Virus genome (UHGV): UHGV-1813710
Direction: 5' to 3' (one strand)
Source of the DNA: a virus
Length of the DNA stretch: 13,011 nt
Shown here: one piece after another, positions 1,690 through 11,140 of the stretch
How positions within the stretch are numbered: position 1 is the stretch's first letter
Layout of the letters: the number at the start of each line of letters is the position of its first letter
Translations under genes and position numbers: made by a program
Notes under the pieces: model-generated
What the model saw: the letters and a program-made list of their open reading frames with translations, nothing else
What the model was told of the DNA's origin: nothing
Database searches by the model: none

Positions 1690-1773
1690 CACCTATAAAA
1701 TGAACTTAAAGTACATTCTATGTCAGAACTGAAAGTACATGCAAATGATTCTACAATTGAACCCATGGTACAA
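1690..1773. promoter_or_regulatory. OR-like immunity switch: three 17-bp bipartite operator-like repeats with putative divergent promoters
   Basis: Repeats ATGAAC-TTAAA-GTACAT (1700-1716), CAGAAC-TGAAA-GTACAT (1724-1740) and TTGAAC-CCATG-GTACAA (1757-1773). Candidate leftward promoter on the minus strand: TTGCAT (plus 1744-1739), 18-bp spacer, TAGAAT (plus 1720-1715). Candidate rightward promoter: -10 TACAAT at 1752-1757, placing the transcript start near the ATG at 1765 (leaderless, as for lambda cI). Confidence 0.45.
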
Positions 1774-2700
1774 GACGAAAAAGTGCGGAAAGATTTTGCC
1801 CAGCGGCTAGCACTGGCCTGTAGAGAAGCGGGGCTTGATGATCATGGCCGTGGCACTGAAATAGCCAAGGCGCTAAAGGTTACGGCCAAGGCTGTCAGCA
1901 AATGGCTCAATGCTGAGGCGTTGCCTCGTCAGCCCAAGATGGAGGCGCTGGCAAGGTTCCTGAAGGTCGATATGATATGGTTGCAGCATGGTAAGCGTGA
2001 CTCAAGATCTGCTGATGAGCAGGACGGGATCATTAAGTACAAGGATTTCGCAGATAGGCTAAACTCTCTCATGGGCGATAAGGGGGTGGACGTGAATCAA
2101 TTAAAAGAAATCTGCGATGTCACATTTGAAGTAGCGCGAAGTTATACACTTGGTGTATCAAAACCACGGGATGAAGCATTAGAGAAAATAGCTAATTTTT
2201 TTCAAGTTTCAATGCCATTTCTCGACTATGGCGTAGTTGATGACTCGCAACCATCTTCCGATACTGAAAAATTACAGCAGTTAGCTGTTTACGCCTCGGC
2301 TGGACGTAGCGGATATATAAATTCAGAGTTCCCAGAGGTCATCCGATCGATTGAAATACCCAAAGAGAGGATCTATGAGCTTTTTGGGAGAAAAAGCCTT
2401 GATGGTATCAGCATCATGAACATCAACGGCGATAGTATGATCCCAACTCTCAACCCTAGAGATCTTCTTTTTATTGACACTAGAATTGATAGTTTTAATG
2501 GCGATGGCGTCTATGTATTTTGTTTTGAAGATGCAATGTTTGTTAAGCGATTACAAAGAGTTAAGGGTAGAAGGTTATCAGTAATTTCAGATAATAATGT
2601 TTACCCTCCATTTACAATTGAAGAAAATGAAATGTTTGAGCTGTACATATATGGAAAGTTGATAAAACAATTACCAATGAAGCTCATTGATTTCGCTTAG
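1765..2700 (+). CDS. CI-type prophage repressor with two tandem HTH (XRE-type) domains and a C-terminal S24 (LexA-like) autopeptidase domain
   Basis: C-terminal region contains GDSM (catalytic Ser) and FVKRL (catalytic Lys) plus an Ala-Gly candidate cleavage site (YASAGRSG). Two separate HTH-like segments precede it (…TEIAKALKVTAKAVSKWLN… and …LKEICDVTFEVARSYTLGVS…). Start ambiguous: ATG 1720 (track) or ATG 1765; 1765 is preferred because 1720 lies among the operator repeats and the putative leftward promoter. Confidence 0.85.
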   Translation: MVQDEKVRKDFAQRLALACREAGLDDHGRGTEIAKALKVTAKAVSKWLNAEALPRQPKMEALARFLKVDMIWLQHGKRDSRSADEQDGIIKYKDFADRLNSLMGDKGVDVNQLKEICDVTFEVARSYTLGVSKPRDEALEKIANFFQVSMPFLDYGVVDDSQPSSDTEKLQQLAVYASAGRSGYINSEFPEVIRSIEIPKERIYELFGRKSLDGISIMNINGDSMIPTLNPRDLLFIDTRIDSFNGDGVYVFCFEDAMFVKRLQRVKGRRLSVISDNNVYPPFTIEENEMFELYIYGKLIKQLPMKLIDFA

Positions 2701-2717: not shown

Positions 2718-2745
2718 AAAGCCGACAACTGTCGGCTTTTTTTTT
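2718..2745 (+). terminator. Rho-independent terminator downstream of the repressor gene
   Basis: Stem GCCGAC (2721-2726) pairs with GTCGGC (2731-2736) around a 4-nt loop, followed by nine T residues (2737-2745), 18 nt after the stop codon. Confidence 0.8.
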
Positions 2746-2783
2746 GCAATAATTTCAATAAATTAAATACAACAACCAATAAA

Positions 2784-2830
2784 ATGTACTTCTGGTACTT
2801 GATTAAATTGAACCAATAGTACATTATAAA
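2784..2830 (+). promoter_or_regulatory. OL-like site: two more copies of the operator motif overlapping a putative rightward promoter
   Basis: TTGAAC-CAATA-GTACAT at 2808-2824 (same orientation as the OR copies) and ATGTAC-TTCTG-GTAC at 2784-2800 (inverted copy with a perfect GTACAT half-site on the minus strand). Centres are 24 bp apart, the same spacing as OR copies 1 and 2. TATAAA at 2825-2830 is a possible -10. Confidence 0.4.
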
Positions 2831-2898
2831 TCCATCAACCGCAGTCACTAGCACTATCAGTGGTTGTGGATACTTAAGAGACTTAGGTGGGAGTTCAA

Positions 2899-3159
2899 AT
2901 GACTAGTTATTACACGTGCTCTTTTTGCGGGATACGCGAGCAGGATGCTAAAAGGATTGTTGCCAAGGGTGGCAGAGATGAGCCAGCAATCTGCTCTAAG
3001 TGCATTGTCTCATGTGTAAATGTCATTATTAACGCAGGAACAGTAATGGAAATAGAGAAAAAAGGCGCCAATAAGGGTGAATTAATCCTTGATATGGAAT
3101 TGGCACCTCGATCAGAAAAAATGTCATTTACTCAGACTGAGGTAGCTCAATCGGATTAA
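2899..3159 (+). CDS. Small protein (86 aa) with a ClpX-type C4 zinc-finger (ClpX N-terminal zinc-binding-domain-like) and no ATPase domain
   Basis: Sequence MTSYYTCSFCGIREQDAKRIVAKGGRDEPAICSKCIVSCVNVII has C-x2-C-x19-C-x2-C and parallels the ClpX N-domain (recalled E. coli motif YCSFCGK…RKLIAG…ICDECVDLCNDII). GGGAG Shine-Dalgarno 6 nt upstream of ATG 2899; the track's 2887 start is GTG. Confidence 0.65.
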   Translation: MTSYYTCSFCGIREQDAKRIVAKGGRDEPAICSKCIVSCVNVIINAGTVMEIEKKGANKGELILDMELAPRSEKMSFTQTEVAQSD

Positions 3160-3403
3160 GCGCCATTGACGCCATTGGTAGCTGAATCAATGAGATCGGC
3201 AAGTTGGATAAACTTCTCTCTACCAGTTGACCTTAAGACACTACTGGCATTAGCAGAACAAGCATCACTGGAATATGCCGCTAGCAAGCATATAGCGGTC
3301 TTTAAAGCGCCGAGTTCTTCAATTAAACCTTCTGGCGTTACGTCGTTATCAAGTGACAGTGTGAAATTTGGCATTTTTATCTCTATGTGATTGGTGTACG
3401 ACA

Positions 3404-3440
3404 GGTGGCGACATTGGCCACCACGCTCTTTAAAAATCTG
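3404..3440 (+). terminator. Hairpin with weak T-tract between the convergent genes (possible terminator)
   Basis: GGTGGC (3404-3409), 7-nt loop, GCCACC (3417-3422), followed by ACGCTCTTTAAAAATCT. The T-tract is interrupted, so termination efficiency is uncertain. Confidence 0.3.
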
Positions 3441-3458
3441 GATATCCCTAGTCGATAG

Positions 3459-3971
3459 TTAGAAGATCATTGGAGCGATATCTATTGGCTCATATGCCGA
3501 TTTGTTCATTAGAAAAAGGCTGGCGCAATGAAAGCATTTGCATTGTTCAAAGTAACAAGAGTTATTCGAATTATATCCAACCTCTCCTGTTGGCTGGAGT
3601 ATCGATACTATTTTTTGTGTGAAGCATTTTGGGCAAAGATGCACGGCTATTTGCATTCCGTTAACAGATTCATTCTTAGAATAAACAAACGTTCCAGAAT
3701 CAAGCTGGTTCAGAGCATAACCTTCAGTCTGGCTTTTAAAGTCTTCGAACTCTGCAATTTTTGCTTTGAGCGTTACGGCTTCTTCCTGATAAAAGCGTGC
3801 AAGCTCAATGAGCGACATGCATTCACGCTGCACAGACGTAAGCTTTAAAACCATATCGCTAACAGCAGAATTTATCTCTGCCTGTGTTTTTGCATTTGAA
3901 ATAACTTTCGCCAAAGCAGTCGTTTCTTTAATTGCCGACATTGCAGCTGTGATTTCAACAAACACTTTCAA
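3459..3971 (-). CDS. Hypothetical protein (170 aa): helical/coiled-coil N-terminal half, Cys-rich C-terminal half; AT-rich moron-like gene
   Basis: Protein-like ORF convergent with the flanking rightward genes; the opposite-strand ORFs (3528-3848, 3808-4008) look like antisense artefacts. C-terminal half has a CPKC…C…CKCFHC pattern suggesting metal binding. TTG start at 3971 with no clear Shine-Dalgarno; alternative ATG at 3941. Sequence is visibly more AT-rich than neighbouring phage genes. Confidence 0.5.
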   Translation of the reverse strand: MKVFVEITAAMSAIKETTALAKVISNAKTQAEINSAVSDMVLKLTSVQRECMSLIELARFYQEEAVTLKAKIAEFEDFKSQTEGYALNQLDSGTFVYSKNESVNGMQIAVHLCPKCFTQKIVSILQPTGEVGYNSNNSCYFEQCKCFHCASLFLMNKSAYEPIDIAPMIF

Positions 3972-9563: not shown

Positions 9564-9782
9564 ATGGCGAAAGAAGCTAAATTGATGCGCGCGAGCGCGT
9601 GGGGCAAGCGTGAGTTCGAGGTGGGTTCTATTCCTGATAATAGAACTATTAGGCGCTGGATAGAAAATGGCCGTTTGCGTGGCCGGATTGTTGATGGAAC
9701 CATTTTGGTTTATTCATCTGAACGCTGGGGTATTGAGTCTGTTGTATCCCACCACGTACATAATTTAATTAGTGAATCATGA
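9564..9782 (+). CDS. xis: Excisionase (lambda Xis-like)
   Basis: Lies immediately upstream of int with an ATGA overlap. Segment RTIRRWIENGRLRGRIVDGTILVYSSE parallels lambda Xis ETVRRWVRECRIFPPPVKDGREYLFHES. GGAG 9 nt upstream of ATG 9564; the track's 9519 start lacks a Shine-Dalgarno. Confidence 0.75.
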   Translation: MAKEAKLMRASAWGKREFEVGSIPDNRTIRRWIENGRLRGRIVDGTILVYSSERWGIESVVSHHVHNLISES

Positions 9783-10960
9783 TGGCAGCTCGACCACGCA
9801 AGCGTGAAAACCGGCACCTTCCCGATCTGCTGTATTTCGATAAAGTTGCCGGCGTTTATCGCTTTACCCTAATCACGGGAAAGAGAAAATCATTAGGCTC
9901 TGACCGTGCTTTAGCAATCGCTATTGCGCGTGAATATAACAATAGAATGCGACCGGATATAGTTGTATCAGTTGACTCGCTTATTAGTGAATCGGGCGGC
10001 TTGAAGGGGGAATCCCTGCCCTTCTCCAGTCATGTTGATCATATTCTCGCTCGTGCTATCACGGACGAGAAACCAAGCCCTGATACAAAGGCTGACTGGA
10101 TGAATGATGCAAAACGAGTGAAAGAATTCTTCATTGACATTCACTGCTGCGATATTGAACTAGAGCACGTCAATGCGTTCATTCAGCATTATCATGCTGA
10201 AGCATCAGCAAACGTACAAAACCGCAAAGTTAGTTTTCTAAAGAAATTATTTAGTTATGCAGTAGACGAATCGTTAATGTTCGATAATCCAGCAACTAGA
10301 AAGAAAATGCGGAGAATTGAGGGGAAAGTTCGCCAACGCTTATCTTTCGACAATCTGATGGCTATACGAAACGCCGCGGATCGATGGCTGCGAACTGCGA
10401 TAGATCTAGCTCTACAGACAACGCACGCCCGGCTTGAAGTTTCCCGAATTCGCTATTCAATCAAAGAGCCCAAAAATGGCGTGTGTGGCTGTGTGTGGTT
10501 CGACGCTCCAGAGAGTGGGATTTATGGCGTTATGTATATACACAGGCAGAAAGTGCAGCACAAAGAAGCATCACACGTCGCAATACCAATCGGGCCTGAA
10601 CTTAAAAGAATTATTGATGATAGCCGCGACAATGCTGCTAGCCCATACATTGTTCATCGTTTACCAAAACGCAATAATAAGCCAAGCAAAGAGGTTTCAC
10701 ATCCTACACAAGTAGCGCCAGACTACTTGAGCCGGGCATTCTCAACACTTCGAGATGAGCTCGGGATTTGCTCACATCTTGAAATGGATGAACGTCCGAC
10801 ATTCCATGAAATCCGAGCGCTTGCTGCACACCTATTTGATACGCAAGGCATTGACCCACAGGGCCGCATGGCTCACAGCGACGCTAAGTCGACTAAGATA
10901 TACACGCAAAATCATATCGATTGGGTCATGGTGCCGCACGGCGAGATCAAGACGGGATGA
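9779..10960 (+). CDS. int: Tyrosine site-specific integrase, lambda Int family
   Basis: N-terminus RENRHLPDLLYF…GKRKSLGSDRALAIA parallels lambda Int HERRDLPPNLYI…GKEFGLGRDRRIAIT. C-terminus has PTFHEIRALAAHLF (H-x-x-R box) and …STKIYTQNH (catalytic Tyr). Adjacent to xis and to the tRNA-derived att core. Confidence 0.95.
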   Translation: MMAARPRKRENRHLPDLLYFDKVAGVYRFTLITGKRKSLGSDRALAIAIAREYNNRMRPDIVVSVDSLISESGGLKGESLPFSSHVDHILARAITDEKPSPDTKADWMNDAKRVKEFFIDIHCCDIELEHVNAFIQHYHAEASANVQNRKVSFLKKLFSYAVDESLMFDNPATRKKMRRIEGKVRQRLSFDNLMAIRNAADRWLRTAIDLALQTTHARLEVSRIRYSIKEPKNGVCGCVWFDAPESGIYGVMYIHRQKVQHKEASHVAIPIGPELKRIIDDSRDNAASPYIVHRLPKRNNKPSKEVSHPTQVAPDYLSRAFSTLRDELGICSHLEMDERPTFHEIRALAAHLFDTQGIDPQGRMAHSDAKSTKIYTQNHIDWVMVPHGEIKTG

Positions 10961-11037: not shown

Positions 11038-11094
11038 GTCGACAACCTAGAGAAACCAGTGCTGGCGCGGGTTTCAGCGTGTTGAATACGCTAA

Positions 11095-11140
11095 CATGGG
11101 GTGTCGGGGGTCGGAGGTTCAAATCCTCTCGTGCCGACCA
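11095..11140 (+). other. Partial tRNA: 3' about 45 nt of a tRNA-Pro-like gene (anticodon loop to CCA), i.e. the att core repeat at the prophage boundary
   Basis: T-arm GGAGG-TTCAAAT-CCTCT (11113-11129), acceptor 3' strand CGTGCCG, discriminator A and CCA (11138-11140). No complementary 5' acceptor strand (CGGCACG) upstream, so the tRNA is not intact. GGG sits at the inferred anticodon position and the string matches my recollection of enterobacterial tRNA-Pro. Confidence 0.65.

Follow-up and report, generated by a model that had tools for sequence, protein, structure and literature searches.

The UHGV virus genome UHGV-1813710 contains, within the 13,011-nt stretch of DNA analyzed here (the window), an 86-aa open reading frame (ORF) at positions 2899-3159 of the plus strand, whose product is predicted to be a free zinc-binding domain (ZBD) of the type found at the N terminus of ClpX. 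Comparative sequence evidence indicates that this ORF, hereafter the finger gene, is genuine and under selection, and that it belongs to the accessory, immediate-early genes of a lambdoid Hafnia prophage. By analogy with the isolated ClpX domain, we tentatively propose, at a probability of about 0.3, that the finger is a free competitor for ligands of the ClpX N-domain, which would blunt adaptor-dependent or N-domain-dependent proteolysis after loss of the repressor. A preliminary description had characterized the ORF correctly except for its cysteine spacing and its presumed unrecorded status, and the mechanism that it raised, a decoy or adaptor retuning ClpXP proteolysis, is plausible.

A ClpX-type zinc finger without an AAA+ module

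The finger gene runs from an ATG at 2899 to a TAA at 3157-3159 and is preceded by a Shine-Dalgarno (SD) sequence, GGGAG (2889-2893), which lies 5-6 nt before the start codon. Its product is divided into a finger domain (residues 1-47; 2899-3039) and an acidic tail that is predicted to be disordered (residues 48-86; 3040-3156). The protein scores 30.5 bits with the Pfam family zf-C4_ClpX (PF06689), for which the gathering cut-off is 27 (E = 3.3e-7), with residues 6-43 aligned to profile positions 2-37 of 39, and it matches PHROG 5259 and PHROG 20296, both without annotated function, at E values of 4.8e-22 and 2.1e-21. ClpX N-domains were the only matches in a sequence search of the PDB, at pairwise E values of 0.03-0.1 even with the small PDB set, and no other family was matched in Pfam, NCBIfam or the PDB. 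The finger begins with MTSYYTCSFCG, and residues 1-47 hold six Lys or Arg against four Asp or Glu residues, a net charge of +2. The zinc-ligand cysteines are C7, C10, C32 and C35, followed by an additional cysteine at C39, and the spacing is therefore CxxC-x21-CxxC. The two CxxC pairs had been recognized in the preliminary description, but the interval between them had been given as x19; it is x18 in Escherichia coli ClpX.

AlphaFold, with 14 homologs in the alignment, predicted residues 1-50 confidently (block pLDDT, the predicted local distance difference test score, of 73-88) and residues 53-86 as disordered. In Foldseek searches the model superposes on the E. coli ClpX ZBD crystals 2DS5, 2DS6 and 2DS8, with target-normalized template modeling (TM) scores of 0.80-0.85 and root-mean-square deviations of 1.4-1.7 Å; these ZBD entries were the sole credible PDB matches, and every other family scored far below them. 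The product is thus predicted, from sequence and model, to be a Zn(Cys)4 treble-clef domain of about 47 residues of the ClpX N-terminal type, joined to a disordered acidic tail. The finger shares with the ZBD of E. coli ClpX the CxxC...CxxC ligands, the CSFCG motif that carries the pocket Phe, the fifth Cys, a length of about 45 aa and, as predicted, the beta-beta-alpha treble-clef fold; the CSFCG motif, a (K/R)(L/I)(I/V)A strand and the IC-x2-C-(V/I)-x2-C segment align in register between the two proteins. It differs from the ClpX domain in that no AAA+ ring is attached. The ORF ends at residue 86, the next ORFs lie on the opposite strand, and no AAA+ module was found after the finger; the NCBIfam ClpX models PRK05342 and TIGR00382, with cut-offs of 359 and 371, gave scores of 24.1 and 17.8 bits, and were matched at model positions 6-57 only. 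The protein is therefore not a ClpX. Both the ClpX N-domain type and the missing AAA+ module had been claimed in the preliminary description, and both stand after the profile search and the structural superposition.

The ratio of nonsynonymous to synonymous substitution rates (dN/dS) in the finger domain is 0.09-0.32, with dS saturated, which indicates that the gene is under purifying selection.

Repressor control and a leader that travels with the gene

Exactly five sites in the window match the motif GWACNNNNNGTAC perfectly. Three of them (cores at 1702-1714, 1726-1738 and 1759-1771) form an OR region at 1702-1771, between a cro-like gene and the cI-type repressor gene, and two (cores at 2786-2798 and 2810-2822, 24 bp apart) form an OL pair at 2784-2824, which coincides with the inverted repeat I7. 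The direct-repeat families D2, D3, D7 and D10 also connect OR and OL. The OL operators flank or overlap a putative pL-like promoter at 2799-2827 of the plus strand (-35 TTGATT at 2799-2804, a 17-nt spacer, -10 CATTAT at 2822-2827), with a predicted transcription start at about 2834. This promoter is probably weaker than consensus, because a consensus promoter scan did not list it. A strong intrinsic terminator of the cI transcript (2718-2746, plus strand; a 9-bp stem with five GC pairs, then T9) stands between cI and the promoter. The finger gene is the first gene downstream of the OL-like pair, as the preliminary description had it, and the operators, the promoter and the leader junction described below lend support to the immediate-early position that was proposed there. 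That the finger gene is expressed immediate-early and under direct repressor control is thus well supported, although predicted from sequence features.

Between promoter and gene lies a conserved 5' leader (2828-2898, plus strand), which comprises a hairpin (2830-2871), a small hairpin (2872-2888) and the SD sequence, and has a minimum free energy of -19.5 kcal/mol (z = -1.66). The identical 86-aa protein is found on three contigs with three different immunity modules (the window, L004 and L006). The repressors of these modules are 326, 232 and 210 aa long, have 17-31% mutual identity and are all of the self-cleaving S24 type, and the Cro types differ as well. The three modules are unrelated up to the -10 hexamer and nearly identical from the next base on, with the -10 hexamers aligned in register. 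The mosaic junction therefore coincides with the predicted transcription start. The leader of about 65 nt and the finger gene form one module, placed behind whatever promoter and operators the local immunity region provides. The differences among the leaders are few and are A to G changes. Within the 5' hairpin the affected pairs stay as G-U, which indicates constraint at the RNA level on the plus strand. The Hafnia-type leader had no match in the phage collection and none in Rfam at the gathering threshold; at E ≤ 1 only sub-threshold Rfam matches appeared, mostly over the cI terminator.

An accessory gene in a recorded but uncharacterized family

Relatives with 43-64% identity over the finger were found in Salmonella phages F1055 and 118970_sal3, an E. 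coli Shiga toxin (Stx)-phage fragment, E. coli Nissle 1917, Citrobacter freundii and several metagenomic contigs. In all contexts examined the synteny is constant: the gene is the first of the early-left genes, 185-245 bp after an S24 repressor gene and on the same strand. Conservation is limited to the first ~45 residues, beyond which the tails are unrelated; the complete proteins are between 57 and 127 aa long, and the members of 57 and 61 aa are nearly tailless. The CSFCG motif, the zinc ligands and the fifth Cys are invariant in 14 family members. These proteins are named "ClpX C4-type zinc finger protein" in RefSeq (WP_016240143-like) and "ClpX-type ZB domain-containing protein" in UniRef and UniProt. 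WP_016240143 itself is encoded by E. coli Nissle 1917. The family is thus already annotated in RefSeq and PHROGs (5259 / 20296) from Salmonella, E. coli and Citrobacter prophages, and the Hafnia gene joins it in the same slot, with a tail and a leader sequence of its own. The preliminary description was aware of no phage-encoded mimic of the ClpX N-domain. This holds for function, as a full-text literature search that covered few subscription journals returned no account of a phage-encoded free ClpX N-domain or its function; it does not hold for the gene family, which is on record. A scan of genome contigs yielded no prophage relatives and only four Clostridia or Ruminiclostridium loci at ~30-33% identity. 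Standalone ZBD-like proteins also occur in the unrelated phages Pseudomonas PP9W2, Bacillus G (gp683) and Clostridium phiCPV4.

The finger gene is carried by 131 of 5426 complete E. coli genomes, whereas the ~65-nt leader of the E. coli/Salmonella type is present in 1382 of them and is also found in 51 phage records from many genera. The leader is thus ten times more common than the gene, and ~90% of the leader-bearing E. coli prophages lack the finger. In E. coli MEI008 the finger gene is absent and the leader is followed directly by the terminator of a reverse gene. The far wider occurrence of the leader argues that the finger gene is an accessory insertion at a hot spot behind pL and not a core function of the lineage.

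The E. coli/Salmonella leader element, CGAACAGGCAGGACGCCCACGAAGTAGCCGCCGGTGGCATAYGAATRACCGGATGATTCG, was observed in its own right. It is a non-coding segment of ~65 nt directly downstream of pL (L007:5904-5970, L020:3001-3060, L002:4914-4980), is found at 82-100% identity in phage records such as ST64B, SfII, SfV, ZF40, YeP1-3 and phiNP, and extends over phages of Salmonella, Shigella, Citrobacter, Klebsiella, Yersinia, Pectobacterium, Pantoea, Providencia and Aeromonas, where it is usually unannotated and mostly without the finger gene. In one stem, CCGGT...ACCGG corresponds to CCTGG...CCAGG in MEI008, a compensatory change. The element has no Rfam match and no similarity to HK022 put, and it folds no better than shuffled sequences. 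We consider it a candidate for a cis-acting RNA in the early-left transcript.

Tandem arrangements of the same type of finger were also observed. Many bacterial proteins among the matches to representative sequences (P0031, P0033-P0036, P0038, P0040 and P0055) are built from two to four or more tandem ClpX-type zinc fingers; P0031 has four tandem copies by Pfam, one protein of 2059 aa contains 10 matched stretches, and none has an AAA+ module. This uncharacterized architecture bears on the general role of free ClpX-type fingers.

A possible decoy for ligands of the ClpX N-domain

In E. coli ClpX, F16 and I46 form the hydrophobic pocket of the ZBD that docks lambda O, trigger factor, SspB and RssB (PMC7804408). 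The ClpX ZBD is a constitutive dimer, and the free domain added in trans inhibits RssB-dependent degradation of sigma-S by ClpXP in vitro (PMC7226468). By analogy, self-cleavage of the S24 repressor would allow pL to fire and the finger protein to accumulate; the protein would probably dimerize as the isolated ClpX ZBD does and expose a similar hydrophobic docking surface. It could then compete in trans for ligands of the ClpX N-domain, either adaptors (such as SspB or RssB) or N-domain-dependent substrates. N-domain-dependent ClpXP proteolysis would be selectively dampened, while pore-recognized, ssrA-like degrons would be unaffected, and the beneficiary may be sigma-S, a protein of the phage, or an antitoxin that, if lost, would set off abortive infection. 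The family as a whole might then, again tentatively, be a natural phage-encoded trans mimic of the ClpX N-domain, made within minutes of repressor loss, which would soak up ligands or cap ClpX N-domains and so confine ClpXP to pore-only selection.

Several observations are consistent with a decoy. Since the isolated ClpX ZBD inhibits in trans, the proposed mechanism works with the authentic domain. The prophage domain is ClpX-specific by profile and by predicted structure, and retains the zinc site, the CSFCG Phe and the hydrophobic core; F9, the equivalent of F16, is invariant in the family. Conservation of the finger only, with tails divergent or nearly absent, fits a competitor that acts through the domain by itself. 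The occurrence of the identical protein behind three repressors of 17-31% identity argues against action on any particular repressor, and the accessory distribution described above is typical of host-modulating early genes. Two other roles were considered and set aside. An anti-repressor role was rejected because the identical protein follows three divergent repressors, all of which are self-cleaving S24 types. A defense-system component was likewise not recovered, with no PADLOC hit for the finger gene or eight of its neighbors.

Other observations weigh against the decoy. Identity to the E. coli ClpX ZBD is 11 of 38 positions (~29%), and the finger has a three-residue insertion relative to it (x21 against x18), with a longer beta-hairpin before the third Cys. 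V42, the equivalent of I46, is variable in the family (V, I, K, S, T, A, M), while the neighboring position 43 is always hydrophobic. Among 1.84 billion representative sequences searched, 42 matched significantly, none of them of ClpX length, and those inspected, which come from many bacteria, are ClpX-type fingers that stand free or in tandem repeats. The lack of a ClpX-length protein among the matches suggests that the fold is a general module, so that homology alone gives no tie to ClpXP. In Staphylococcus, ClpX is required to complete prophage induction (PMC10584840), and blanket inhibition of ClpX would thus be counterproductive. Finally, none of the related prophages has a match to the lambda O family, and they carry initiators of the Phg_2220_C or HTH_36 type instead. 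The earlier suggestion that the finger stabilizes phage replication proteins is therefore unsupported.

Alternative explanations

The finger may instead be a generic interaction module whose target lies outside the ClpXP pathway; it might, for example, inhibit a host protein involved in defense, the nucleoid or replication, with the treble clef serving only as a scaffold. We regard this as a possible, if tentative, explanation. It would agree with the nearest relatives among the 1.84 billion representatives being free or tandem fingers (four copies in P0031), with the low identity to ClpX and the variable I46 equivalent, and with an accessory distribution that would suit any host-takeover or anti-defense function; the most conserved surface motif, CSFCG, nevertheless holds the Phe of the ClpX ligand pocket, and no search suggests another partner (PADLOC was empty, and Pfam, NCBIfam and the PDB offered nothing else). 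A partner within the pathway would be ClpX itself: the finger would form a heterodimer with the host N-domain, and its tail would either deliver cargo to ClpXP or block the N-domain, acting as an adaptor or as a poison subunit. The constitutive dimerization of the ClpX ZBD (PMC7226468) would allow such pairing, the diverse tails are as expected for different cargos, and SPO1 gp53, which acts on ClpCP, provides a phage precedent (PMC6873191). We consider this unlikely, however, since ~29% identity and the loop insertion make a matched heterodimer interface doubtful, the members of 57 and 61 aa have almost no tail, and the tail encoded in the window is predicted to be disordered and has no recognizable XB-like L(R/K)xh motif.

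Even less probable, in our judgment, is a transcription regulator or antiterminator in the slot of lambda N, which would act at the leader or at a nut-like site and allow pL transcripts to read through two antisense genes into the early-left operon. AlpA of Pseudomonas is a processive antiterminator, and in Kluyvera-type prophages the slot holds an AlpA-family helix-turn-helix (HTH) protein whose C-terminal tail is common with that of a 121-aa finger variant. The gene is the first after pL and follows a conserved structured leader, both features resembling the lambda N, HK022 put and AlpA-type systems, and a hairpin with a boxA-like GCTCTTTAAAAA is found at 3403-3436 on the pL strand. On the other hand, no boxA is present in the leader, and the number of boxA matches across the window equals that expected by chance; the boxA-like element can also be read as the 3' flank and terminator of the reverse gene. 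The finger gene is dispensable in most related prophages, being absent from ~90% of the E. coli prophages with the same leader and from MEI008, which retains the hairpin and a perfect boxA. Since the same element occurs in MEI008 with a perfect GCTCTTTAACAA and without the finger, the site and the protein do not co-occur. Unlike lambda N, the finger has no arginine-rich RNA-binding motif, its net charge is only +2, its tails are not conserved, and the ClpX ZBD is not known to bind nucleic acids. The leader differs from HK022 put as well: both leader types, compared with HK022 24000-32000 by blastn-short (a comparison of sequence only), gave chance 8-12-mers and no similarity to putL. It is hardly credible that the ORF arose by chance or is what remains of a captured, decaying clpX 5' end. 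The ORF is short and its Pfam score is just 3.5 bits over the cut-off, but it has PHROG matches at E about 1e-22, homologs at the same position in four genera, dN/dS of 0.09-0.32 with saturated dS, an SD sequence and a promoter of its own, and a confidently predicted AlphaFold domain. For practical purposes this reading is excluded.

Comparison with other phage modulators of host proteases

Small phage proteins that blunt a host AAA+ protease are known from lambda. CIII, encoded in the pL operon, inhibits FtsH as an amphipathic-helix competitive substrate, and RexB is a membrane protein. T4 PinA and T7 Gp4.5 are inhibitors of Lon. RexB shields lambda O, and also antitoxins, from proteolysis by Clp (PMC51794 and PMC28068, cited in PMC11077077), and gp53 of the Bacillus phage SPO1 is an adaptor-like modulator of ClpCP (PMC6873191). 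By analogy, the finger would resemble CIII and RexB in its small size, its location next to the immunity region or within the pL operon and its proposed effect, and would resemble gp53, PinA and Gp4.5 as an early phage protein that retargets or inhibits an ATP-dependent host protease. CIII and RexB are, however, unrelated to the finger in sequence and fold, and the likeness to them is inferred; gp53, PinA and Gp4.5 act on other proteases, have unrelated folds, and none of them copies the docking domain of the protease.

Neighboring genes and organization of the window

The window comprises the left arm of a lambdoid prophage that adjoins a tRNA-Ser(UGA) gene at 11057-11140. The host is Hafnia paralvei or H. 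alvei, as the flanking family-8 glycosyltransferase and the integrase fall in Hafnia-named protein clusters. On the minus strand lie a gene for a YmfL/CII-like regulator (868-1395) and the cro-like gene (1451-1684). The repressor gene (1720-2700, plus strand) encodes a cI-type protein of 326 aa with two HTH_3 domains (E = 1e-11) and a Peptidase_S24 self-cleavage domain (E = 3e-15) by Pfam, and matches the repressor families PHROG 4 and 6201. Megablast of the immunity region against the phage collection gave no match, and against E. coli genomes only the S24 domain was matched, at 77-78%. The third OR operator (1759-1771) overlaps an in-frame ATG of the repressor ORF, M16, at 1765, and a start at 1720, as listed, would leave 35 bp between cI and cro. 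The actual start of cI is probably M16. The early-left operon on the plus strand contains YfdP-like, DUF2303/YfdQ, YfdR-like and 3'-5' exoribonuclease-like genes and xis, and ends with the integrase gene (9779-10960).

Convergent to the finger gene is a 72-aa gene of PHROG 7249 (3156-3374, minus strand), whose stop codon overlaps that of the finger gene. L026 and Salmonella phage 118970_sal3 carry homologs of 33-38% identity that likewise converge with the finger gene and overlap it, and other relatives have unrelated small reverse genes at this position. The two genes may form a module, or may be linked by antisense or transcriptional interference. A second reverse gene, PHROG 1244 (3459-3971, minus strand; 168-170 aa), is antisense to the pL transcript. 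Its product combines a coiled coil at the N terminus with a CPKC...C-x-C-x2-C cluster at the C terminus and has no match in Pfam, NCBIfam or PADLOC. The corresponding place in E. coli MEI008, a prophage without the finger gene, holds a homolog of 53% identity. This gene could be a lysogen-expressed moron or an exclusion gene. At 3403-3445 of the window (L020:3074-3115 in MEI008), a hairpin is followed by GCTCTTTAAAAATCTGGATAT on the strand of the pL transcript, and the MEI008 version is GCTCTTTAACAATCTGGGTAT, with a perfect rrn-type boxA core. Read on the opposite strand, this element flanks the PHROG 1244 gene on its 3' side, and in MEI008 it forms the hairpin and T-run terminator of that gene. 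The element may be a nut-like site, a terminator only, or both.

Two further observations concern the relatives. In the 121-aa finger variant of E. coli Nissle 1917 (P0003 / L021:4202-4567), the C-terminal ~60 residues share ~80% identity with the tail of a Kluyvera protein (P0027 / L032-L034:4001-4393) that has an AlpA-family HTH head and occupies the same first-gene-after-cI slot. The alignment points to head swapping between zinc finger and HTH on a common tail, and AlphaFold returned a pLDDT of 41 for the 121-aa variant, the fold of its tail not being predictable. In the early-right region of Salmonella phage 118970_sal3, L002:2655-2843 matches the Rfam families C4 antisense RNA (79.7 bits) and isrK (64.3 bits) beside a "putative antirepressor," and is thus identified, by these matches, as a P1/P7-type immI-like module within a lambdoid prophage.

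Implications

ClpXP controls sigma-S, the SOS response, antitoxin turnover and replication proteins of the lambda O/MuA type, and the N-domain of ClpX is the hub for adaptor-guided selection. If the decoy idea is wrong, the finger gene simply adds to the accessory ORFs of unassigned function in the early region. If it is true, the finger would become the first viral protein known to disable a host AAA+ protease through imitation of the docking domain of that protease, and would offer a compact natural tool for separating adaptor-dependent from adaptor-independent ClpXP proteolysis. The idea is cheap to test, as the gene is carried by the well-studied strain E. coli Nissle 1917 and by the monophasic S. 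Typhimurium prophage 118970_sal3. A decoy function would also provide an entry point to hundreds of uncharacterized standalone "ClpX-type ZB domain" proteins, and the free or tandem ClpX-type fingers of bacteria could then be endogenous regulators of a similar kind.

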